This document shows positions 3,802-63,860 of a DNA stretch of 64,000 nt, piece by piece. Under the pieces are notes generated by a model. It searched no databases. It saw only the letters and a list, made by a program, of their open reading frames with translations, and was not told the origin of the DNA. The DNA lies in contig DATJNM010000019.1 in the NCBI GenBank assembly GCA_035508155.1, positions 10,488-74,487 on the forward strand, in the 5' to 3' direction. Both the position numbers and the translations under genes were made by a program. The stretch is from Candidatus Sulfopaludibacter sp. GTDB taxonomy: Bacteria; Verrucomicrobiota; Verrucomicrobiia; Limisphaerales; UBA11358. Numbering within the stretch: position 1 is the first letter of the stretch; each line of letters opens with the position of its first letter.

Positions 3802-3975
3802 GGATGGAGCCGACTCACGTCGGCCGTTACCCACCCAGGCCTGCCCAATTCCAGCTTCATCCGTGGTTGATAATCCCCTTCCCGTCTCGACAATGGCGAA
3901 ATTTTTCCTAGATTGTTGGAATGTCGTTTGACTGGCATGGTCGAAAATCCGCCAATCGTAGATCGTAAATCATAA

Positions 3976-4755
3976 ATGAATGAGCCGTTGGTCATCGCCG
4001 GCAGAAGTTTCCGGTCGCGCCTGATCCTGGGCACGGGAAAATTTTCGTCGCCGGACGCCATGCGCGACGCCCTCGACGCCAGCGGCGCGGAATTGGTCAC
4101 CGTCGCCCTGCGCCGCGCCGATCTGTCCGGGAAGCACGATCCGTTCGCGAATATTCTGGAATTCATTGACCCGAAGAAATATCTCCTGCTGCCCAATACC
4201 AGCGGCGCGATGAACGCGGAAGAAGCCGTCCGGCTCGCGCGCCTGGCCGCCGCCGCCGGCTTGCCGAAATGGGTCAAACTCGAAATCCATCCCGACCCGC
4301 GCTATCTGCTCCCGGATCCGGTGGAAACATTCCGGGCCGCCGAAATGCTGGTGAAGGAAGGATTCACCGTACTGCCTTACATCAACGCCGATCCGGTGCT
4401 GGCCAAGCGGTTGCAGGACGCCGGTTGCGCGACGGTGATGCCGCTCGGCTCGCCCATCGGTTCAAATCGCGGCATCCAGACGCGCGACCAAATTCGCATC
4501 ATCATCGAGCAGGCCACAGTGCCCGTGGTCGTGGATGCCGGTCTCGGCGCGCCCAGCCACGCCGCCGAGGCGATGGAGATGGGCGCCGACGCCGTGCTCG
4601 TCAACACCGCCATTGCCGTTTCGAGCGATCCGAACCGCATCGCGGTTGCCTTCAAAACCGCGGTCGAAGCCGGACGCACCGCCTATGAAACCGGGCTGGC
4701 CGCGCAACAGGAGGCCGCCAGCGCCACCAGCCCGCTAACAGCATTTCTGGATTAG
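3976..4755 (+). CDS. thiG: Thiazole synthase ThiG
   Basis: 259 aa. The N-terminus [19 protein letters not shown], then VTVALRR, LLPNTSG and the overall length are typical of ThiG. Confidence 0.95.
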
Positions 4756-9505: not shown

Positions 9506-9577
9506 GAAATCGGAGGGACGAGTTACGCGAGTCCCTGAATTATCCGGGACTCACAGAGCTCGTCCCTCCGAAATTTC
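9506..9577 (+). repeat. REP-like nested-hairpin element, copy R1
   Basis: gaaatcggagggacgag...ctcgtccctccgaaatttc forms the outer stem and gagtccc/gggactc the inner stem. It is homologous to the copies at 40018-40086 (opposite orientation) and 44524-44596. Confidence 0.8.
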
Positions 9578-28728: not shown

Positions 28729-29047
28729 GAGCGGGCACGAGTTTGCAAGTGGTTTCCTCAGGCGCAACAAAAAATTTACAGGAATTTTTCTTGAGAAAAT
28801 CCCGGAGCCGGGCGATATTGGAGCCGTCAGAAAAAAGAATTGCTCTTTGATCGACAACCTGAATTTACCCTGCCCTGTTCGTGATTAGGCAACTAATCCT
28901 TGAACCGTAATAATACGATCCCGGGACCCAGGCCGGGGCTGTGGCCGACACGCCTTTGTTGGAAGTCGAAAGCAGTCCAGCCCGTCCCACATGTTGCAAA
29001 ACATGTTCAAAGGAACAGTTACCCACGGCAATGGCGGGGTTTTTTAT

Positions 29048-29082
29048 ATTTGCGATTTCGGATTTGCGATTTGCGATTTTTT
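29048..29082. repeat. Tandem heptanucleotide repeat (ATTTGCG)-like, 5 units
   Basis: atttgcg atttcgg atttgcg atttgcg atttttt, located 70 nt upstream of the rarA ATG. Confidence 0.9.
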
Positions 29083-33433: not shown

Positions 33434-33455
33434 GTTTTGTGGTTTGCTCCGGGCC

Positions 33456-34325
33456 ATGAGCCGGGATTTTCTCCACCGCCTGCGTACGCTGGTGATTTTG
33501 GGGCGGGTGTCGAACCTGCCGACGGTGTGGTCGAACTGCCTGGTCGGCTGGCTGCTCGGTGGCGGAGGAAATTACGCCAATCTCCCCTGGTTATTCTTCG
33601 GCATCACCGCGCTGTACCTCGGCGGCATGTTTTTGAACGACGCATTTGACGCGGACTTCGACCGACAACATCGCCCGGAACGGCCGATCCCTTCCGGCGC
33701 GATTTCGCTGCCGGCGGTCTGGGGCTGGGGACTGGTTTGGCTGGTTCCGGGCACGTTGAGCTTGATTATGATCGGGAAGACGACCGGCGCCCTGGCGCTC
33801 GTGTTGCTGCTGTGCATCGTCCTTTACGACGCCACGCATAAAGTCATCACCGCCTCACCCTGGTTGATGGGCGCATGCCGGTTCTGGGTTTATGTCATCG
33901 CCGCCTCCTGTGCCAGTTGGGGTGTGAACGGCTGGCCGATCTGGTGCGGCGCAGCGCTGGGAATCTACGTCGCCGGCTTGAGCCACGTCGCGCAGTTGGA
34001 AAGCTTGCGCGGAAGGGTTCCTTATTGGCCCCTGATTCTGCTGTCCGCGCCGGTCGTGTTGGCCCTGTTGATGGATGCCGGAGAAAACCGCGTTTCGGGC
34101 CTCTGGCTGTCGCTGGTGCTGGTGCTCTGGAGCGCGCGTTGTGTCCGAACCATTTTTCAGGGAGGCGCCGTGAACGTGGGCCGAATCGTTTCCGGCCTGC
34201 TGGCGGGAATTGTGTTGGTGGACTGGCTGGCCGTTGCGCCGGGTTGTCCGACTGCGTTGAGCGCGGTGTTTTTAATCCTGTTCGGCGCCACGTTGGGACT
34301 GCAACGATTCGTGCCGGCAACGTGA
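33456..34325 (+). CDS. eboC: UbiA-family prenyltransferase (EboC-like)
   Basis: The ORF runs from TTG 33444, with an ATG at 33456. It has about 8 TM segments, and the Asp-rich motif NDAFDADFDRQHRPERPIPSG is typical of UbiA prenyltransferases. It lies immediately after the eboE-like gene. Confidence 0.6.
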   Translation: MSRDFLHRLRTLVILGRVSNLPTVWSNCLVGWLLGGGGNYANLPWLFFGITALYLGGMFLNDAFDADFDRQHRPERPIPSGAISLPAVWGWGLVWLVPGTLSLIMIGKTTGALALVLLLCIVLYDATHKVITASPWLMGACRFWVYVIAASCASWGVNGWPIWCGAALGIYVAGLSHVAQLESLRGRVPYWPLILLSAPVVLALLMDAGENRVSGLWLSLVLVLWSARCVRTIFQGGAVNVGRIVSGLLAGIVLVDWLAVAPGCPTALSAVFLILFGATLGLQRFVPAT

Positions 34326-34331
34326 AAAGCT

Positions 34332-34366
34332 AAGGCCGAAGGCTGAACGCTAAAGGCTTGAGAAAT
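34332..34366 (+). repeat. Upstream heptad-periodic arm of four-helix-bundle cassette A
   Basis: aaggccg aaggctg aacgcta aaggctt gagaaat, then ATG at 34367. It is complementary to 34744-34771. Confidence 0.8.
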
Positions 34367-34745
34367 ATGAACGAACAGGCGAAGGATTTAAAAATACGAA
34401 CAAAGGCGTTTGCGCTTCGGGTCATTCGTATGTACTCCAAACTGCCCGGGAACAACGCGGTCGCACAGGTGCCCGGCCGGCAGGTCTTGCGTTCGGGAAC
34501 GGCGGTCGGTGCAAATTATCGCGAAGCCTCCCGCACCCGCTCCCAAGCCGAGTTCATTTCCAAGACAGGCGACTGTCTCAAAGAAATTGATGAAGCCGAA
34601 TATTGGCTGGAATTGATCGTGGATAGTGGCTGTATTCCAGCCGGCCGAATGGCCGAACTGCTTGATGAAGCACGGGCAACTCATCGCAATATTTGCGACC
34701 ATCGACAAAAGAGCCAAAGGCCAAAATGCCGACTCCAGCATTTAG
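34367..34745 (+). pseudogene. Four-helix-bundle protein (23S rRNA IVS protein/Avd family) with an apparent +1 frameshift at G-run 34674-34676
   Basis: MNEQAKDLKIRTKAFALRVIRMY..QVLRSGTAVGANYREA..SQAEFISK...EIDEAEYWLELI fits the family. After ..LLDEAR the annotated frame reads ATHRNICDHRQ... to 34786. Skipping one G gives QLIAIFATIDKRAKGQNADSSI followed by a stop at 34743-34745, which is the expected family ending, for a total of 125 aa. Confidence 0.7.
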
Positions 34746-34771
34746 CCTTTAGAATTCGGCCTTTGCTTTCC
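34744..34771 (+). repeat. Downstream heptad-periodic arm of cassette A
   Basis: agccttt agaattc ggccttt gctttcc. agccttt pairs with aaaggct (34352-34358) and cggcctt pairs with aaggccg (34332-34338). Confidence 0.75.
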
Positions 34772-34823
34772 ACAAGCTTCGCTTGAACAGCCAATCATCC
34801 TCGGTTATTTTGGTTGTTCGTAT

Positions 34824-36605
34824 ATGAACATAGAAGGCTTGAACAGCTTTCCAGACCAGGTTAGCGGCCTTTCTGCAGCCGGCAAACCCGTTACACCGCA
34901 ACCGGGTTTCCGGGCAGAAAGGGAACTGACGCACAACGAAGAGATTAAGGAAGCGATTCCCACGCTCGCGGGCACCATCGCGTCCACGCTGGCCAACCCG
35001 GGCGCCGACACGTTCTCCGGCGATGACGCCCAATTCCTGAAATTTCACGGTGTTTATCCGCAGGACGACCGCGATCTGCGTTCGGCGGCCGGCCGGAAAT
35101 ACATCATGATGGTCCGCAGCCGCATTCCCGGCGGCGTGATGACCGCCAACCAGTGGCGTGTGTTCGACGAACTGGCGTGGCTTTACGGCAATAATACGCT
35201 GCGCATCACCACCCGCCAGACCATCCAGTTTCACGGCGTCGTCAAGGCGAACCTGCGTCTGGTGGTCAAAAAAATCAACGAGTGCCTGCTCTCCACGCTC
35301 GCGGCTTGCGGCGACGTGAACCGCAACGTGCTCGCGCCGCCCACGCCCGCGTACACCCGGGCGCGTGATGAAGTCTATCGCGATTGCGTGCGGGTGGCGA
35401 ACGCGCTCAAGCCGCAGACCCGCGCCTATTACGCCATCTGGATCGACGGTTTCCAGCTCAAGATTGACGACCCGTTCAACCAGGCGTTCGTTGATCCACT
35501 TTACGGCAAGGCGTATTTGCCGCGAAAATTCAAAACCGCGTTCGTTATCCCGCCGGTGAATGACCTCGACGTTTTCACCAACGACCAGGGCTTCATCGCG
35601 GTGGTGGAAAGCGAAAAACTGTTAGGTTACAACCTCGTCGTCGGCGGCGGCATGGGACGCACGCACGGTAACCAGCAAACTTACCCGCGGCTGGCGAGCG
35701 AACTCGGATTTATCACGCCGGACAAATTGATTGAGGTTGCCAAAGCCGTGCTGACGATTCACCGCGACTACGGCGACCGCACCGACCGCAAGCACGCGCG
35801 CTTCAAATATGTCGTCGAAGAGCGTGGCGTGGATTGGACGCGCGCCGAGGTTGAGAAGCGAGCCGGCATCAAATTTGCGCCGATCCGGCCTTACCGGTTC
35901 ACGACGACGGCCGATTTGCTCGGCTGGCACAAATCCGTGGATGGAAAGAATTTCTTCACGCTGTTCGTCCAAACCGGCCGCGTGAAGAACGAAAAAAAGA
36001 TCGCGCTGCGCGAAATCGCGGAGAAATTTCCGCACCTCGGATTCCACCTGACCACGAATCAGAATGTGATTCTCGCCAACGTGAACGATGCGGACCAAGC
36101 CGGCATCAATTCGATTTTTGCGGCGCACAAAATTCCCGTTGAAAATCAGGCGCGCGTTTTGCACGCGGTCGCGATGGCCTGTCCCGCCCTGCCCACCTGC
36201 GGCCTGGCCCTCGCCGAATCCGAACGGATATTGCCCGGGCTCATTGACCGCATCGAAAAACTCTGCGGCGATCTGGGACTCGGTGACGAGGAGATCATCA
36301 TCCGTTCGACCGGTTGCCCGAACGGTTGCGCCAGGCCGTACCTGGCGGAAATCGGATTCGTCGGCAAAGCGCCGGGACGTTATCAACTTTGGCTCGGCGG
36401 CAATGTTTCCGGCACGCGCCTCAACCGCGTGTGGAAGGAAACCGTCAAAGACCCCGACATCGAGAATGAATTACGGCCGGTGCTCGCCCGCTATGCCAAG
36501 GAACGCAATCCGGGCGAACGTTTCGGCGACTGGTGCGACCGGGAGTTGTGGCCGGAAAAGCCGGCCGCGGTCAACCCGGTGGCCGATCCCATTCCAGCTC
36601 CATGA
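34824..36605 (+). CDS. cysI: Assimilatory sulfite reductase hemoprotein subunit
   Basis: 593 aa and collinear with E. coli CysI. Matches include FLKFHGVYPQDDRD, LRITTRQTIQFHGV, YLPRKFKTAFVIPP, NRTDRKHARFKY and the siroheme/4Fe-4S motif TGCPNGCARPYLAEIGFVGKAPGRY. Confidence 0.92.
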   Translation: MNIEGLNSFPDQVSGLSAAGKPVTPQPGFRAERELTHNEEIKEAIPTLAGTIASTLANPGADTFSGDDAQFLKFHGVYPQDDRDLRSAAGRKYIMMVRSRIPGGVMTANQWRVFDELAWLYGNNTLRITTRQTIQFHGVVKANLRLVVKKINECLLSTLAACGDVNRNVLAPPTPAYTRARDEVYRDCVRVANALKPQTRAYYAIWIDGFQLKIDDPFNQAFVDPLYGKAYLPRKFKTAFVIPPVNDLDVFTNDQGFIAVVESEKLLGYNLVVGGGMGRTHGNQQTYPRLASELGFITPDKLIEVAKAVLTIHRDYGDRTDRKHARFKYVVEERGVDWTRAEVEKRAGIKFAPIRPYRFTTTADLLGWHKSVDGKNFFTLFVQTGRVKNEKKIALREIAEKFPHLGFHLTTNQNVILANVNDADQAGINSIFAAHKIPVENQARVLHAVAMACPALPTCGLALAESERILPGLIDRIEKLCGDLGLGDEEIIIRSTGCPNGCARPYLAEIGFVGKAPGRYQLWLGGNVSGTRLNRVWKETVKDPDIENELRPVLARYAKERNPGERFGDWCDRELWPEKPAAVNPVADPIPAP

Positions 36606-37264
36606 CCGCTGATCAAATCGTCGAAGCCAACGCCGGCTTGCGGAGCAGGCCGCCGTTGGAAATTGTGCGCTGGGCCATTGCCCAGGCCAATGGGCGGGCG
36701 CTGGTTTCGACCAATTTTCGCCCGTACGAAGCGGTGATTTTGCATTTATGCGCGCAGGTGCAACCGGATATTCCGGTGCTGTGGGTGGACCACGGTTACA
36801 ATCGTCCGGCCACTTACAAACACGCCGAGGCATTGAAAAAAATGCTTCGCTTGAACCTGAAAGCCTATCTGCCGAGGATTTCCGCCGCGCATCACGACGC
36901 CATCCACGGCGACCTTCCGTCCACCGATGACGAAGCTGGTTTGAAACGGTTCAGCGCGTTGATGAAGCTGGAGCCGTTCCAGCGCGGCATGAAGGAACTG
37001 GCGCCGGCGGTCTGGATCACCGCATTGCGTAAAGTCCAAAATCCGAACCGCGCCGGCCTTGATATCGTTTCCGAGGACAAGAATTTTGGTGCGCTCAAGG
37101 TCAGCCCGGTTTTTTATTGGACCGACGCGGACATGGAGGATTACCTGAGGCAGCACCATCTGCCCAACGAATGGGACTATTTTGATCCGGCCAAGGCCGA
37201 CGACAAGCGCGAATGCGGTTTGCATGCGACCTGGGGGTCGCAGGCTCTTGGATCTGGGATCTAA
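36602..37264 (+). CDS. cysH: Phosphoadenosine phosphosulfate reductase (Fe-S-less type)
   Basis: The ATG at 36602 overlaps the cysI stop (ATGA). The C-terminal ECGLH is present. The CC and CxxC Fe-S cysteines of APS reductases are absent: FSALMKLEP stands in place of CC..K.EP, and there is no GCxPCT. Confidence 0.88.
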   Translation: MTADQIVEANAGLRSRPPLEIVRWAIAQANGRALVSTNFRPYEAVILHLCAQVQPDIPVLWVDHGYNRPATYKHAEALKKMLRLNLKAYLPRISAAHHDAIHGDLPSTDDEAGLKRFSALMKLEPFQRGMKELAPAVWITALRKVQNPNRAGLDIVSEDKNFGALKVSPVFYWTDADMEDYLRQHHLPNEWDYFDPAKADDKRECGLHATWGSQALGSGI

Positions 37265-37306
37265 GACAACGACATGGACGCGTACCTATCGGTTAAAATT
37301 CATTTG

Positions 37307-37343
37307 GAATCCGTGTTCATCCGTGTTCATCTGTGGTTAAATC
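37307..37343. repeat. Decamer-periodic tract abutting the cysD start
   Basis: gaatccgtgttc atccgtgttc atctgtggtt aaatc, ending 6 nt before GTG 37350. The core ttcatctgtggtt recurs as ttcatccgtggtt at 3857-3869. Confidence 0.8.
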
Positions 37344-37349
37344 TTTGAA

Positions 37350-38252: not shown

Positions 38253-38254
38253 TC

Positions 38255-38282
38255 GGAGATGGGAGTTCGGAGATGGGAGATC
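38255..38282 (+). repeat. Upstream heptad-periodic arm of four-helix-bundle cassette B
   Basis: ggagatg ggagttc ggagatg ggagatc, starting 3 nt after the cysD stop and ending 6 nt before ATG 38289. It is complementary to 38664-38691. Confidence 0.85.
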
Positions 38283-38288
38283 GAAAAT

Positions 38289-38657
38289 ATGGCTACGCCA
38301 CGGTCATTTGAAGATTTGGAAGCTTGGGAGGCCGCTCGTGAGTTGACCAACAAAGCTTATCAGCTCTCGCGTCGCGAGCCGTTGTCTCACGACTTCGGAT
38401 TATGTGACCAGCTTCGCCGCGCCGCGCTTTCGGTGATGAACAACAGCGCCGAAGGTTGGGAAAGCCTTCATCTCGCCGAGAAAAAGCAATTTTACAATTG
38501 GGCGCGACGCTCTTGTGGCGAAGGCCGCTCCATGAGTTACGTTTTGCCCGACAATAAATTCATCACAAGTGAAGAACAACAGACTTTGTTAAAATTTTGT
38601 ATGCGCTCCGGCAAACTCGTCAGTGGTCTGATCCGTTCGCTGGACAACCGCAATTAA
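38289..38657 (+). CDS. Four-helix-bundle protein (23S rRNA IVS protein/Avd family)
   Basis: MATPRSFEDLEAWEAARELTNKAYQLS....DQLRRAALSVMNNSAEG...KKQFYNWARRSCGE... The 122-aa length and helix pattern fit the TIGR02436/PF05635-type family. Confidence 0.8.
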   Translation: MATPRSFEDLEAWEAARELTNKAYQLSRREPLSHDFGLCDQLRRAALSVMNNSAEGWESLHLAEKKQFYNWARRSCGEGRSMSYVLPDNKFITSEEQQTLLKFCMRSGKLVSGLIRSLDNRN

Positions 38658-38663
38658 ACCCGA

Positions 38664-38691
38664 ACTCCCATCTGCCATCTCCCATCTCACA
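38664..38691 (+). repeat. Downstream heptad-periodic arm of cassette B
   Basis: actccca tctgcca tctccca tctcaca. Its reverse complement aligns with the upstream arm at about 24/30 positions. It ends 5 nt before the cysN ATG at 38697. Confidence 0.85.
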
Positions 38692-38696
38692 AATAA

Positions 38697-49105: not shown

Positions 49106-49181
49106 CTGTAGCGGCGGCCTGTGACCGCCGCATATTCCGGCGTGAATAAAAAAATGCGGCGTTCATAGAACGCCGCTACAG
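49106..49181. terminator. Bidirectional terminator structure between convergent genes
   Basis: Hairpin 1 is gcggcgg-cctgtga-ccgccgc (49111-49131). Hairpin 2 is gcggcgtt-cata-gaacgccgc (49156-49176), preceded by an A8 run that forms a T-run on the minus strand. Both are enclosed by an 11-bp outer stem, ctgtagcggcg paired with cgccgctacag. Confidence 0.7.
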
Positions 49182-54105: not shown

Positions 54106-54161
54106 GCCGGATGCAAAAAGGCTGGGCGCGCTTGAATGGATGCAAAGACGGTAAGGCTTTA

Positions 54162-54659
54162 ACACGAATTGCGCGAATGAGCACGAATTGAAGTCACGAA
54201 GTGGCTGGCGACAATAGCCCACGGCTTCAGCCGTGGGTCAACCGTCCAAAATAATATCAAGCCCCGGAGGGGCGGCAGAATGTTCCATCACCCAATCCTT
54301 GAAGTCTCCGCCCTCTCAATTCCTTAATTTCTTCCGCCAGCTTTTCCGCCTGTTGCTGCAACTCCACGCTTTCCTGTTCCAGCAATTTGCTCCGCTCCGC
54401 TGCCAGTTCCTCCAGCACACCGGGTCGTTGCTCGACGATGCCGCACAGCTCGTATTCCGCGCTTTCCTTCAATTGCTCCAGCGATTCGATGACGGCGATG
54501 ACTTACAGTTGCAACGATTCATGGATGCAACCCCGTTGGGGTTGGAAATGTTTGTTGGCACGCCACCCGGCGTAGCCCGATTGCATCGGTCAACGCCGGG
54601 CTGATTTCCGTAGCGCCTTCAGCGCATTTTAAATTCGCGCCCATTCGCGAAATTCGTGT
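54162..54659. repeat. 498-bp segment bounded by 28-bp imperfect inverted repeats (MITE-like or degraded cassette)
   Basis: The left repeat is acacgaattgcgcgaatgagcacgaatt (54162-54189). The reverse complement of the right repeat (54632-54659) is acacgaatttcgcgaatgggcgcgaatt, matching at 25/28 positions. The interior holds short hairpins and only a 71-codon TTG-start ORF on the minus strand. Confidence 0.6.
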
Positions 54660-55307
54660 CAATCTCTGCGTCTCCGCGTCCCTGCGTTGGAATTTCCGCC
54701 GTGCAAGGATTCCTTCCTGGCCAAAACCAAAGGCGCGCCGCGAGATAGGTTCAACAGAAGCCAACGAAGGGAACGAAGAAAAGATTCCTTGCTGTGTTTG
54801 CTCCGTTTTCTTCTGTAGAGGTTTTGCCTTTGAATCCGCCGGAGCGAAAATCACCCCCGGTTCATTTCATAAATCACCGGCCTAATCCACCCAAAAAAAA
54901 TCAAACAATTAGCAAAAATGGTTGAGCAATATCATTTTGCTGAGTTTAACTTATTTATGCGAACTCGGACAACGTGTGTCGCAGGCAGCGTCGGCATGGA
55001 CAGAGTGGACCGGTTCTGTGAAGCAGGACCGGGTCGCCACGAAAACTGGCGCTGGTGCAGGTGAATCCTGCCCGACGAACGTTCCGTAAGTTTGCCGGCG
55101 GAGATGTGCCCCCGCCGGGCGAAATGGCATCACAACTGGTCGCCGGAAGACATTCCTGACAGGGGAAAAGTCCAGCGCCGGACAGGATGAGATGACCGTA
55201 ATGCGCGAACAATTACTGGCTCGGCAGGCCACGGAGCGTTTCAGGCGCTCTTGGGGAAGTCCCCATGTTTTGGTCCGGCCGGGCGTTCGCATCCCCCTCC
55301 TCCGCTC

Positions 55308-60506: not shown

Positions 60507-60587
60507 AGCTTTACACGGCCATCTCCCAACTCCGAGCTCCCATTTTCGCTCCACGAAAATCCTGTAGCCGACATTCTACTGACGACC
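60507..60587 (+). repeat. Heptad-core repeat element H1
   Basis: agctttacacggcc + catctcc caactcc gagctcc cattttc gctccac + gaaaatcctgtagccgacattctactgacgacc. It is homologous at both ends to 63724-63860. Confidence 0.75.
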
Positions 60588-60607: not shown

Positions 60608-63586
60608 TCAAGGTGTGGCGGAACGATATAATCTAACCGGGTAAAGGCCGGCGTTTGAGTCGGTGAACTGCCACGCACCACTGGCCGGAGCAAGGTTGGT
60701 GGCGATGGGTCGCCAGACGGCCGGCGGCGTGAGGTTGGTAACGGCCAACACCCGGTTGGTGGTGTTGGGCGTGGTCAGGAGATTAAATGTAAAACTGCCG
60801 TCCGGATTGCGGTGCGGTTTGGAAATCATGTCCCGGACGTTGGCCTGGGCAACATAGGCCGAAGCATTGGTGCCGGCCGCGGTAAGGACCCCTCCCGCGT
60901 AAAGCCGACCAGCCTGATCGGCGGCCAGCGAGAGCACCGTCCCATTCACTCCGGAGCCCAAGGCCGACCAGGCGGTTCCATCCCATTTGGCGATATAATT
61001 AACCAGGGCACCACCCGCCATGGTGAACGCGCCGCCCGCGTAGAGATTACCCGCCGGATCCAGGGCCAGCGAATAGACGTAATCATTCATTCCGGAACCC
61101 ATGGCGGTCCATGAGGTTCCATCCCATTCGGCGATGTTGGTGGCAGCGGTGGCGCCGGCCATGGTGAAGTTGCCACCGGTATAGAGGCGATTCGAGGCGT
61201 CCACCGCCAACGTGAAGACATAAGGGGAACTGCCTCCCATTCCCGGGCCAAGCGCAGACCACGTAGTTCCATTCCACTCAGCGATGTTGCTTGCCGTCAC
61301 TCCACCAGCCGTGGTGAAGGAGCCACCGGCATAAAGATTGCCGGCGTGATCAAAGGCCAGGGTCTGAACGAGCCCGCCGTTGCCGCTGACTCCCGTGCTC
61401 AGGGCCGACCACGTGCTCCCGTTCCATTCCGCAATGCTATTGACGGTGACACCGCCCGCTGTGGCAAAGTAGCCTCCGGCATATAGATTTCCCGCATGGT
61501 CTGTGACCAGCCCATAGACCTGGCCGTCAATTCCTGGGCCAAGGGCCGACCACGTGCTCCCGTTCCATTCGGCAATGTTGTTGGCCATGATGCTCCCGGC
61601 ATTGGTGAACGTGCCGCCCGCATAAAGATTCCCGGCGCCATCGGTCGTCAACGTTTCAACCGTGCCGCTGGCGGGACCGATTCCCGTGCCCAAAGCCGAC
61701 CATGAACTTCCATTCCATTCGACGATATTGTTGGCCGGAGTACTGCCTACCCCGGTAAAATCCCCTCCGACGTAGAGGTTGCCTCCCGCATCCACGGTTA
61801 CCGTGTACACCAGTGTTACGTAGATGGAAGTGGAGTTGATACCCGAGCCAAAGGTTGACCAGGTGCTGCCGTTCCATCGGGCGAGGTCATGGGCCGGAAG
61901 GCCGCCCGCGGTGTTGAATGCCCCGCCGGCGTAAACATTGCCACCCCCATCCAGGGCGATGGAATAAACATAGCCGGCGGCATTAGTATTGATGCCCGGG
62001 CCCAATCCGGACCAGGTGCTCCCGTTCCAAACCGCGATGTGGTAGGCGGACCCGCCACCGGCCGTAGTGAAGAAGCCGCCGGCGTAAAGTTTCCCCGTGC
62101 CGTCCCAGGCCAGTCCCAGAACCGTGCTGTTTACCCCCGTGCCCAGGGGTGACCAGGTGCTTCCATTCCAGACCGCCACTCGGGCGGCCGGGCTGCCGTT
62201 GGCCATGGTGAAACTGCCTCCGGCATAAACGTTGCCGGAGGTATCTGTCACAAGCTCAGAAACCGTAGAGTTCATTCCCAACCCGAGCGCCGACCAACTG
62301 CTTCCGTTCCATTCGGCGATGTTGGTGGCAGCAATGCCGCCGGCCTTGGTGAAAGTTCCGCCCACATAAAGATTGCCTGTTCCATCCAGGGCCATGGCCA
62401 AAATCGTGCCGTTAATACCCGCACCCATGGCGGACCAGGAACTCCCGTTCCAGCGCACAACGTTGGTCGCATTCACGCTCTTGTTGGTGAAAACACCTCC
62501 GGCATACACATTGCCCGAACTGTCCGCCGCCACCGCAAGCACTTGACCGTTGATTCCCGGTCCCAGCACGGACCAACTCGTTCCGTTCCATTTGGCAATG
62601 TTGGTGATGGCCAGGACGGCATTCGTGAACAGGCCGCCGGCATAGAGATTGCCCAAGCCATCGAGCGCCAGACCTCTCACGGTGCCTCCCAATCCCGATC
62701 CCAACGGGACCCACGTGCTTCCGTTCCATTCCGCAATCCCGGCGGCCGCCGCCGTGCCGACGGCTCTGAATTCACCGCCGATATACACCGTTCCCGCATT
62801 CTTGTCTTCAACCATGGTATAAACGATCCCGTCGGCTCCCGGATACGAACCCAGGCTGACCCAATTGGCATCGCTGAACGTTGGGTCAATGCGCACCGGA
62901 TAGCTGGCGCCCGCATCGTCCACCTGCACGGCCAATCGGCTGGCGGAAACCACCTCCAGCTTCGCGGCCAGTTCCTTGCCGGTCGCGTCCACCGCTCGCA
63001 GGCGGCTGTAAGCCAATACACGGTGTGACTCTTCCAGGACGATCGTCGCACCGTAATCAGCCAGCTCCGCGCGCGCGCCGGATAACTCCAAATCCAGACG
63101 CAAATCACCTTGGCCCGGTGGACGGTGCCCAATGACGTAATCCTGCCGCAGGCCGTCCGTGCTTACCGAATATTCCTCCGTCAGCCCGGGTCGTTCCCAA
63201 CGCACCACGGAATCCATCACCTGTACCTGCCCCGTGGAGCACAGTGACATTTCATTCCGCTCACCGGACCTTCCCAAATTGGTGGCGGCCAGACGAAAAC
63301 GTTCGCCGTGCGAGTTGGCGGTGGTGGAGGCAAGCCAGAGCCCCCCGGCGGTGGCATGGCCGTCCATCCTTTGAAAGGCGCAATGCAACCGCGCGCCGTC
63401 AGCGGTGGCCGAAATACTCAGGGCATCACCATGAGATTGTGCGCCGGCAGCCTTGCCGATGGCATCCCACGGAATGGACGGGTGGGCGGGGACAGCGTCA
63501 GTTGAAGAACTTCCCAGCACGATTGCGGAAAGGACTGCGTTGGGGAATAACAGCATCGCGAGAGTGCAAACCATCTCAGTTCTCAT
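60608..63586 (-). CDS. Secreted protein with a roughly 240-aa N-terminal module, about 14 tandem ~48-aa WNG[ST]xW propeller-type repeats and a C-terminal beta-sandwich
   Basis: Signal peptide MRTEMVCTLAMLLFPNAVLSA. There are 13 clear repeats of the form IAEWNGS(T)WSALG.G.....V.AL..D..GNLYAGG.FT.AGG plus one degenerate first unit (DANWVSLG). Confidence 0.8.
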   Translation of the reverse strand: MRTEMVCTLAMLLFPNAVLSAIVLGSSSTDAVPAHPSIPWDAIGKAAGAQSHGDALSISATADGARLHCAFQRMDGHATAGGLWLASTTANSHGERFRLAATNLGRSGERNEMSLCSTGQVQVMDSVVRWERPGLTEEYSVSTDGLRQDYVIGHRPPGQGDLRLDLELSGARAELADYGATIVLEESHRVLAYSRLRAVDATGKELAAKLEVVSASRLAVQVDDAGASYPVRIDPTFSDANWVSLGSYPGADGIVYTMVEDKNAGTVYIGGEFRAVGTAAAAGIAEWNGSTWVPLGSGLGGTVRGLALDGLGNLYAGGLFTNAVLAITNIAKWNGTSWSVLGPGINGQVLAVAADSSGNVYAGGVFTNKSVNATNVVRWNGSSWSAMGAGINGTILAMALDGTGNLYVGGTFTKAGGIAATNIAEWNGSSWSALGLGMNSTVSELVTDTSGNVYAGGSFTMANGSPAARVAVWNGSTWSPLGTGVNSTVLGLAWDGTGKLYAGGFFTTAGGGSAYHIAVWNGSTWSGLGPGINTNAAGYVYSIALDGGGNVYAGGAFNTAGGLPAHDLARWNGSTWSTFGSGINSTSIYVTLVYTVTVDAGGNLYVGGDFTGVGSTPANNIVEWNGSSWSALGTGIGPASGTVETLTTDGAGNLYAGGTFTNAGSIMANNIAEWNGSTWSALGPGIDGQVYGLVTDHAGNLYAGGYFATAGGVTVNSIAEWNGSTWSALSTGVSGNGGLVQTLAFDHAGNLYAGGSFTTAGGVTASNIAEWNGTTWSALGPGMGGSSPYVFTLAVDASNRLYTGGNFTMAGATAATNIAEWDGTSWTAMGSGMNDYVYSLALDPAGNLYAGGAFTMAGGALVNYIAKWDGTAWSALGSGVNGTVLSLAADQAGRLYAGGVLTAAGTNASAYVAQANVRDMISKPHRNPDGSFTFNLLTTPNTTNRVLAVTNLTPPAVWRPIATNLAPASGAWQFTDSNAGLYPVRLYRSATP

Positions 63587-63723: not shown

Positions 63724-63860
63724 AGCTTTACCCAGCCCTGTCTTCAATCTCCCATCTCGCATCTCCGAACTCTGTCCTCCGACCTCTGATTTCCGCCATC
63801 TTCAATCTTCGATCTTCCATCTTCGCTCCGCAAAAATGTAGCCGATAGTCCCCCGACGCC
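63724..63860 (+). repeat. Heptad-core repeat element H2 (expanded, 13 heptads)
   Basis: The left end is agctttacccagcc. The core 63741-63831 holds 13 consecutive 7-nt units (tcttcaa tctccca tctcgca tctccga actctgt cctccga cctctga tttccgc catcttc aatcttc gatcttc catcttc gctccgc). The right end is aaaaatgtagccgatagtcccccgacgcc. Confidence 0.8.

Follow-up and report, generated by a model that had tools for sequence, protein, structure and literature searches.

A stretch of 64,000 nucleotides from Candidatus Sulfopaludibacter sp. (assembly GCA_035508155.1, contig DATJNM010000019.1, positions 10,488 to 74,487; here called the window) carries between its eboC-like and cysI-like genes a short insertion, cassette A, in which an open reading frame (ORF) for a four-helix-bundle protein (PF05635) is bracketed by two inverted arrays of tandem heptamers. 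The inverted heptamer-array architecture is common across this protein family, with units that are specific to lineages. Judged on sequence, the plan of the cassette is identical to that of the S23p-bearing intervening sequence (IVS) of 23S rRNA. Cassette A is best explained, with a probability of roughly 55%, as a selfish cassette of the IVS type, in which the four-helix-bundle ORF would lie in the loop of a hairpin with inverted arms of about four to five heptamers, the arms forming a stem of the RNase III type. The features of the locus are given below.

33444–34325, plus strand: upstream neighbour, eboC-like UbiA prenyltransferase (Pfam PF01040), stop codon TGA at 34323–34325.
34326–34768, plus strand: cassette A as a whole (arm, ORF, arm), delimited by comparison of empty and filled sites.
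34322–34362, plus strand: upstream inverted-repeat arm of A, from an inverted-repeat scan and duplex statistics, with heptads at 34332–34366.
34367–34745, plus strand: four-helix-bundle (S23p/Avd-like) ORF of cassette A, PF05635/TIGR02436, frameshifted, a probable pseudogene.
34733–34773, plus strand: downstream inverted-repeat arm of A, from the same scan and statistics, overlapping the last codons and the stop.
34769–34823, plus strand: native cysI 5' leader (TCCACAAGC...TTCGTATATG), outside the cassette and kept in L147/L148, L003, L144 and L151.
34824–36605, plus strand: downstream neighbour, cysI-like sulfite reductase (PF01077 and PF03460), ATG at 34824.

Cassette A is an insertion, lying after the eboC stop codon and before the cysI leader. 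Homologues of the eboC-like protein are named UbiA family prenyltransferases and come mostly from Verrucomicrobiota. Comparison of orthologous eboC/cysI junctions, which had been suggested in a preliminary description of this DNA, found the site filled in the loci L003, L144 and L151 and empty in L147/L148, a Verrucomicrobiia relative with an eboC 78% identical. The spacer of L147/L148 is 110 nt long and holds neither an ORF nor heptads, and its final 55 nt (TCCACAAGC...TTCGTTTATG) match positions 34769–34823 of the window as well as the three filled loci. Since the cysI leader is conserved in the cassette-free L147, the element is limited to 34326–34768 and the leader is native. The preliminary description had placed a four-helix-bundle cassette at 34326–34823, running from the stop codon of eboC to the start codon of cysI. 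The PF05635/TIGR02436 ORF and the inverted heptad arms were indeed found there, and the cassette does begin directly after the eboC TGA, but it ends at 34768 and not at the cysI ATG. A second cassette, B, is located between cysD and cysN:

38253–38696, plus strand: cassette B, a PF05635 ORF with inverted arms.
38256–38283 and 38661–38688, plus strand: arms of cassette B, 28 nt, 86% complementary, 4.6 copies of the heptad GGAGATS and its complement.
38289–38657, plus strand: intact ORF of cassette B, 122 amino acids, PF05635 87.3 bits, TIGR02436 80.7 bits.

The cysD/cysN junction of L141 is empty and consists of 6 nt (TGA-TTTGCC-ATG). Hence cassette-free orthologous junctions are known for both A and B, and both cassettes are insertions. 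A target-site duplication was seen in neither comparison of filled and empty sites (A against L147/L148, B against L141).

Each arm of cassette A is built from four to five tandem heptads of the form AAGGCYN or its complement. The upstream heptads AAGGCCG, AAGGCTG, AACGCTA, AAGGCTT and (GAGAAAT) occupy 34332–34366 and end at the ATG, and the downstream heptads AGCCTTT, AGAATTC, GGCCTTT and GCTTTCC occupy 34744–34771, all of them as listed in the preliminary description. It had been claimed there that the arms pair with one heptad bulged out; the pairing was confirmed, but the bulge is needless, as 34322–34362 and 34733–34773 can be aligned without gaps over 41 nt at 80% complementarity. Among inverted repeats within 900 nt, these arms are the longest of the window, and those of B rank fourth. 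The duplex energy of the A arms is −48.2 kcal/mol, compared with −30 ± 4 for dinucleotide shuffles, and that of the B arms is −42.4 kcal/mol, compared with about −21 ± 3.4; in both cases none of 1000 shuffles was as good. Pairing of the arms of A with those of B is weak (−12 and −26 kcal/mol). When the bases were scrambled within heptads, none of 2000 permutations was as good for either cassette. The score of the inverted alignment is 42 for A and 37 for B, against 15 and 12 in a complement-only control. This control preserves composition and the 7-nt periodicity, and it therefore answers the objection, raised in the preliminary description, that two low-complexity heptad tracts might be complementary to this extent anyway.

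The proteins of A and B both belong to PF05635, though they have no BLASTP similarity to each other, and the earlier view of A as a second family member with the same arm plan and a different arm sequence was borne out by inverted arrays of 4–5 heptads with unrelated units in the two cassettes. The ORF of A opens at the ATG at 34367, and its first 103 codons clearly encode PF05635. Beyond "ELLDEAR" the family-typical C-terminus (QLIAIFATIDKRAKG...) runs on in the +1 frame to a TAG at 34743–34745, which is the corrected stop assumed in the preliminary description. The frame-corrected protein scores 53.7 bits against PF05635 (cutoff 33.8) and 73.5 bits against TIGR02436 (cutoff 24), and it matches PDB entry 2RLD with an E-value of 2e-19; the cassette B protein matches 2GSC with 3e-8. 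The frameshift is a 1-nt insertion, an extra G in the run 34674–34676. The orthologous locus L003 (87% DNA identity) has an intact gene of 118 amino acids with one G fewer in this run, which identifies the window copy as the frameshifted one. In a second assembly of the same sample the gene is likewise uncalled, although this is not independent evidence. Without the +1 correction at the G run, A does not provide an intact ORF of the usual length (about 115–130 amino acids), and it is a probable pseudogene. The family has a conserved motif, R-x3-S-x3-N-x2-E (GxxRxxxSxxxNxxE; PMC3936711), which is complete in cassette B (RRAALSVMNNSAE); in the window copy of A it reads RSGTAVGANYRE, with the serine replaced by alanine, and the orthologues in L003, L144 and L151 keep the serine (RSGTSVGANYRE). 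The state of the ORF differs among the filled sites: it is frameshifted in the window and intact in L003, stops 7 codons early in L144 and reads through the downstream arm in L151. With its broken ORF, a lost motif residue, arms just 80% complementary and a marginal stem, copy A looks to be decaying.

A side observation concerns L003 itself. The label of this closest genome record (DATNHM010000027.1) is Candidatus Limnocylindrales (Chloroflexota). For eboC and cassette B alike, most named homologues are Verrucomicrobiota, a single eboC match bearing a Ca. Acidoferrales label, and the window encodes outer-membrane-type proteins. The Limnocylindrales label is probably doubtful and due to a binning or label problem.

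RNA folding had been proposed in the preliminary description. In the predicted minimum free energy (MFE) and centroid structures, each cassette is closed by its arms. The pairing probability of the B arms is 0.95 both in about 700–750 nt and in 1.4 kb, but that of the A arms depends on context and falls from 0.78 for the element alone to 0.25 in about 700–750 nt and 0.04 in 1.4 kb, a marginal stem that fits a decaying copy. All four orthologous A loci (the window, L003, L144 and L151) keep the complementarity of the arms, with inverted-repeat scores of 29–40 against 11–15 in controls, even as heptad number and register vary among them. Covariation between the arms, another check proposed earlier, was weak for A, where the cognate pairing of arms gave the best total of 24 permutations (p = 0.04, n = 4; marginal), and was absent for B. 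A scan for promoters and terminators found no site resembling either inside cassette A or B, from which co-transcription of the cassettes with the operon is inferred. An Rfam scan of 28–41 kb found neither a known RNA family at the cassettes nor rRNA, and its sole match at gathering level was a 6S RNA.

The architecture was then compared in relatives of A collected from contigs of genomes and metagenomes, comprising 58 non-identical complete cassettes at 34–88% identity, labelled as Verrucomicrobiota, Terriglobia, Blastocatellia, Binatia, Kiritimatiellia, Pirellulales and Chloroflexota. A tandem array of period 7 or 14 is present in 59% of the cassette flanks and in 5.6% of those of the remaining genes of these loci (Fisher 2.7e-20). 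For the 52 cassettes with long enough flanks, the median score of the upstream arm inverted against the downstream one is 37, compared with 16 in the matched control (Wilcoxon 4e-10), and 75% of these cassettes reach a score of at least 30, as do 2% of the matched controls. Cognate arms pair more strongly than non-cognate ones (p = 1.9e-8). The number of units per arm has a median of 4.3 and its mode in the 4–5 bin, and 19 of 34 cassettes point the same way as both neighbours, from which gaps of about 60 nt separate them. The unit follows the lineage of the cassette: it is AAGGCTR at 70% identity to A or above, followed by AGAATGA, GGATGAA, ATCAGAA and AATTTCG, and the Kiritimatiellia cassettes have an 8-nt unit (CCAAGTTG). 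Cassettes of the AAGGCTR type were found in unrelated gene contexts.

The same plan is found on plasmids. A tblastn search of PLSDB gave 29 records, and inverted heptamer arrays are present on both sides of all eight genes inspected on plasmids of cultured bacteria (Nostoc punctiforme, Anabaena, Planktothrix, Gloeocapsa, Pseudanabaena, Chlorohelix, Bernardetia and Treponema). The clearest example is the intact, perfectly armed cassette of NPUN_RS35560 on pNPUN02 of Nostoc punctiforme PCC 73102, (CAATTCG)4.7 / ORF / (AATTGCG)4.8, and the plasmid cassettes sit within operons such as helicase/x/methylase, csx2/x/cas1 and drmD/x/MmeI. Nostoc flagelliforme has a 239-kb plasmid, pNFSY06, whose complete sequence includes five annotated four-helix-bundle genes, each of them between arrays of 3.4–4.9 copies and each with a unit of its own. 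Of the 45 heptamer arrays on this plasmid, 11 lie within 150 nt of four-helix-bundle genes, where 0.64 would be expected (p = 3e-11), and 17 of the remaining 34 carry the unit of one of the five cassettes, most of these being ORF-less inverted pairs of 120–225 nt. It was also observed that one ORF-less pair, (AATTCAA)n ... (ATTTTGA)n, lies inside an annotated AlkB coding sequence (CDS) of pNFSY06 (114172–114843; L163:14502–14694 = NZ_CP024791.1 114502–114694), which means either a wrong CDS call or a mini-element interrupting the gene.

All Verrucomicrobiota contigs inspected have cassette B between cysD and cysN (70–98% protein identity), and its unit GGAGATS is always kept. L141, where this junction is empty, has a paralogue of B (72% identical) between cysH and cysD, with the unit GTCTGGS / CCCAGAC. 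The cysH/cysD slot is also filled in other ways. In L107 and L144 it holds a GxxExxY protein (PF13366/TIGR04256) between (CACGGATTN)3 and its complement, and in L108 an 80-nt arm-arm hairpin alone, without an ORF (−43 kcal/mol). The flanks of L107:1047–1520 and L108:1436–1520, both on contigs of Lake Tanganyika type, are 98.5–99.5% identical, and the difference between the two includes the last cysH codons.

On the preferred reading, that of an IVS-type cassette, an ancestor of a Verrucomicrobiota clade acquired cassette A in the spacer that separates the eboC stop from the cysI leader. Vertical inheritance since then, with turnover of the arms, is shown by the four orthologous loci. The cassette would be co-transcribed with eboC and cysIHDN, and its arms would pair into a stem of about 30–40 bp that closes off the cassette. 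By analogy with the rRNA IVSs, this stem may be a signal for RNase III-type processing or for insulation; with such a signal the flanking genes could tolerate the insertion, and the ribosome-binding region of the cassette itself would be occluded. Slippage would expand and contract the heptamer arrays, so that the arms stay complementary at the level of the unit.

Several results weigh against this course. RNase III cleavage and co-transcription are putative, and the closing stem of A has a low ensemble probability with long flanks (0.25 and 0.04). The mismatches of the arms comprise 25 G·U and 34 A·C pairs; there is no excess of G·U over A·C on the sense strand and hence no signature of RNA-specific selection. 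Permutation of whole heptads was as good as the natural arms in 139 of 2000 cases (7%) for A and 220 of 2000 (11%) for B. As this is not significantly worse, the complementarity is one of a unit array against a complement array and not of unit order, and the idea of a conserved specific order of heptad variants was dropped. Cognate-specific covariation is absent among the B orthologues (p = 0.52), because the GGAGATS unit is common to all of them. Relative to the ORF, the purine-rich version of the array is the upstream one in 49 of 57 cassettes (p = 2e-9), an asymmetry that a pure stem model does not predict. Finally, unpaired heptamer arrays are found directly upstream of ordinary genes (thiG, 3954–3977; mgsA region, 29048–29079), so heptamer arrays have an existence beyond stem formation.

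On another reading the arrays would be cognate sites of the encoded protein: a pentameric ring would bind 4–5 heptamers of RNA or DNA, in analogy to the TRAP ring on spaced triplets, and would regulate its own gene. Solo arrays of the same unit would then be a small regulon or non-autonomous copies mobilised in trans. The number of units fits, since most arms hold 4–5 (the median given above), the PDB relatives 2GSC and 2RLD have 5 chains per entry and S23p is described as a homopentamer (PMC4990558). So does the tracking of the unit with the cassette lineage and not with the host, as seen for A and B in one genome and for the five units on pNFSY06. Half of the non-adjacent arrays of that plasmid (17/34) match the unit of a resident cassette, the window has B-unit arrays at 60521–60545 and 63747–63825 (14 matches, 2.3 expected), cognate-unit arrays elsewhere in the same loci amount to 1.04 per 10 kb against 0 for non-cognate ones, and the purine-rich upstream arm is a strand-specific arrangement. 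However, the paralogues B and C are 65–72% identical and have unrelated units (GGAGATS and GTCTGGS), whereas B orthologues at 70% identity keep theirs, so that simple co-inheritance explains the correlation of protein and unit. GxxExxY (PF13366) cassettes and ORF-less pairs moreover share the architecture without a four-helix-bundle protein, and copy A keeps its arms despite a broken ORF. Binding by the encoded protein is therefore considered rather unlikely as the main explanation, though it is the strongest competitor.

It is less probable still that the arms act on DNA, as a mobile element's terminal inverted repeats or cruciforms, serving insertion into spacers or hairpin loops or recombination, with the RNA stem a by-product and the ORF-less pairs resembling MITEs (miniature inverted-repeat transposable elements). 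The lack of a G·U bias, the AAGGCTR-type cassettes in unrelated gene contexts, the polymorphic cysH/cysD slot of L107 and L108, the ORF-less 120–225 nt pairs with identical units on one plasmid (pNFSY06) and insertions placed exactly between a stop codon and the leader or start of the next gene would all suit such an element. Yet a target-site duplication is absent from both empty-site comparisons, the cassettes encode no transposase or integrase, and a single trans-acting transposase is unlikely since the arms differ between cassettes of one genome; the L107/L108 change also replaces the last cysH codons and so looks like allelic replacement and not clean transposition, and strand asymmetry relative to the ORF is unexpected for symmetric DNA ends. 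That the complementarity is a meaningless chance by-product of two low-complexity, heptad-rich spacers has next to no probability. The block permutations, as good in 7% and 11% of cases, are in its favour, but no dinucleotide shuffle or within-heptad scramble was as good and the matched control scored 15 against 42; the A arms are also the longest inverted repeat of the window, and the pattern recurs around homologues in many phyla. The earlier view that the shared plan points to structure or a shared insertion mechanism and not to sequence agrees with the lineage-specific units and the empty junctions, the G·U and A·C counts leaving the RNA and DNA levels unseparated. The readings as RNase III-type stem, protein-binding site and mobile DNA are not mutually exclusive.

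A tblastn search of the window for more PF05635 or GxxExxY genes returned A and B alone. Other heptad-bearing elements of the window are the following:

37309–37335, plus strand: arm relic in the cysH/cysD spacer, 2.7 copies of ATCCGTGTTC, like the arm of the GxxExxY (PF13366) cassette, or of the ORF-less hairpin, that relatives have in this slot.
54159–54662, no strand assigned: third segment bracketed by inverted repeats, arms 54159–54192 and 54629–54662, 34 nt, 85% complementary, CACGAATTG-like units.
63747–63825, minus strand: solo arrays built of the heptad unit of cassette B (GGAGATS, GAAGATS), upstream of a gene for a 992-amino-acid beta-propeller protein.

The relic of 2.7 ATCCGTGTTC copies resembles specifically the downstream arm of the GxxExxY cassette in L107 and L144. 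It was also noted that the 3' end of cysH (window 37245–37349) contains TCTTGGA TCTGGGA TCTAAGA, similar to the upstream arm of the cysH/cysD four-helix-bundle cassette in L117, L127 and L141. On this sequence resemblance the cysH/cysD slot of the window seems to have been occupied once and then vacated. The interior of the third segment (54193–54628, 436 nt) gave no Pfam or NCBIfam match; it contains two small GC hairpins and, on the minus strand, a coiled-coil-like ORF of 71 amino acids.

The B-unit array at 60521–60545 is the shorter of the two solo arrays. A module of about 80 nt, present in two direct-repeat copies (60508–60585 and 63733–63860), flanks the beta-propeller gene (60608–63586, minus strand); each copy consists of B-type heptads (ATCTCCC and ATCTTCN on the plus strand) followed by TTCGCTCCRCRAAAA..TGTAGCCGA, and the copy at 63.7 kb has an extra heptad tract. 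Strong local hairpins occur at 49106–49181 (31-nt arms, 14-nt loop) and 9510–9571 (29-nt arms, 4-nt loop), the former containing CTGTAGCGGCG, recalling the motif TGTAGCCGA found at 60.5 and 63.8 kb. The solo array AATCGTA GATCGTA AATCATA at 3954–3977 ends at the thiG ATG (3976). This placing, forward and ending at a start codon, is that described for the TAACTGA repeats of Beggiatoaceae, and a Planktothrix plasmid (L159) also has a four-helix-bundle gene flanked by the AATCGTA unit. The 6S RNA gene (Rfam RF00013, 71 bits, 28864–29044, plus strand) lies directly 5' of the solo array (ATTTGCG)x4.6 at 29048–29079, which precedes an mgsA/rarA-like gene and a 5-formyl-THF cyclo-ligase gene. In several relatives a gene of the phage integrase family is found just downstream of cysN (L117:4121–4792, L141:7346–8767), beside the cys operon with its many cassettes, and the window has none there.

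Among the small genes of Cyanobacteria, Bacteroidota, Verrucomicrobiota and other groups that lack an explanation, those for "four helix bundle protein" are some of the most frequent, and they have turned up as odd passengers in cas, restriction-modification and metabolic operons. Several phyla also have an excess of heptameric tandem repeats, likewise unexplained. The present analysis adds that four-helix-bundle genes are systematically bracketed by inverted heptamer arrays, on the plan of the S23p IVSs. The arm observation is far beyond chance, and copy A is an old, decaying insertion. It may tentatively be proposed, as a possibility that is at present doubtful, that PF05635 genes and the unexplained intergenic heptamer repeats (those of cyanobacteria, GGGAATC of Xanthomonas and TAACTGA of Beggiatoaceae) are two halves of one system. 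If this were true, each gene would travel in a hairpin of its own heptamer and its pentamer would read 4–5 tandem copies, and solo arrays and ORF-less inverted pairs would be targets in trans, for translational control or for mobilising non-autonomous copies. In that event the IVSs of 23S rRNA would be just a special case, the first to be noticed, of widespread "loop-ORF" cassettes, which also carry GxxExxY (PF13366) genes. Together, the empty sites, the ORF-less derivatives and the shared plan turn separate curiosities into one testable class of elements. The four-helix-bundle family is listed as CRISPR-associated in reports (PMC3936711, PMC10910872), and insertion of cassettes into operon spacers may account for this listing.

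Unexplained intergenic heptamers have been reported as GGGAATC in Xanthomonas (70 convergent pairs in Xcc) and GGGGAYT in Nostoc (PMC4692102), as TAACTGA repeats with no known function in Beggiatoaceae (PMC4679880), at recF/recO in Nostoc (bioRxiv 2022.06.06.494920) and as tandem heptanucleotides in Calothrix (as cited in PMC4692102). Like the arrays of the window, they are 7-nt units in few copies, intergenic and variable in copy number between relatives, and they often end at a start codon and often form convergent inverted pairs. Unlike them, the window arrays bracket four-helix-bundle genes, and a search of PMC4692102 and PMC4679880 for the gene terms found no mention of four-helix-bundle or S23 genes in either. 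No literature link of heptamer arrays to such genes was found beyond the Coxiella IVS, most subscription journals lying outside the search, so that an earlier description is possible; nor, beyond that single case, was a description found of the pattern that links four-helix-bundle genes, rRNA IVSs and heptamer repeats.

Other mobile or cassette-like systems share single traits with A and B. The bAvd protein of diversity-generating retroelements (DGRs; PDB 4DWL; PMC10053308) has a PF05635-like pentameric four-helix-bundle fold and is a nucleic-acid-binding partner in an RNA-templated process (PMC10053308). An assignment to DGR Avd was rejected, as the neighbours encode UbiA, sulfite reductase, PAPS reductases and the CysN GTPase and no reverse transcriptase; repeat scans of the two cassette regions also gave no long direct repeat of the template/variable type. 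Integron cassettes with attC sites are likewise promoterless and carry a single ORF, and the attC site is conserved in structure and not in sequence. They were rejected because the arms of A and B flank the ORF (both attC arms are 3' of it) and because there is no intI/attI or cassette array and no integrase among the neighbours. MITEs and REP-type hairpins are also short inverted-repeat elements of intergenic spacers, and ORF-less versions are known here too (L108, the Nostoc plasmid pairs). Unlike in MITEs, the arms are tandem arrays which differ between copies in one genome, and no associated transposase was identified. A transposon with terminal inverted repeats or a MITE was rejected on the lack of a target-site duplication and on arms that are unrelated in sequence between A, B and the third element.

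The closest likeness is to the 23S rRNA IVSs of Coxiella and Leptospira (PMC4990558). The IVS of Coxiella burnetii is 428 nt long and carries an S23p (PF05635) ORF, which is decaying; its terminal inverted repeats pair into a stem of 28 bp in which RNase III cuts have been mapped, and three tandem GACAGAT heptamers and a degenerate fourth, varying in number between strains, precede the ATG (PMC4990558). IVSs thus share with A and B a PF05635 ORF of about 120 amino acids that is often decaying, a terminal inverted-repeat stem around it (about 28 bp, as compared with 41 nt at 80% in A and 28 nt at 86% in B) and tandem heptamers before the ATG (3–4 in the IVS, 4–5 in the window) whose number varies between relatives. 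They also share a sporadic distribution that suggests horizontal spread. The heptamer itself differs, being AAGGCYN or GGAGATS in the window and GACAGAT in Coxiella, and RNase III excision, shown for the IVS, is inferred for the window cassettes. The main difference is one of place: IVSs lie in helix 9, 25 or 45 of 23S rRNA, and the window cassettes in the mRNA spacers eboC/cysI and cysD/cysN. As the plan of the IVS is present and the rRNA location is not, cassette A is classed as an IVS-type cassette outside rRNA, and not as an IVS.

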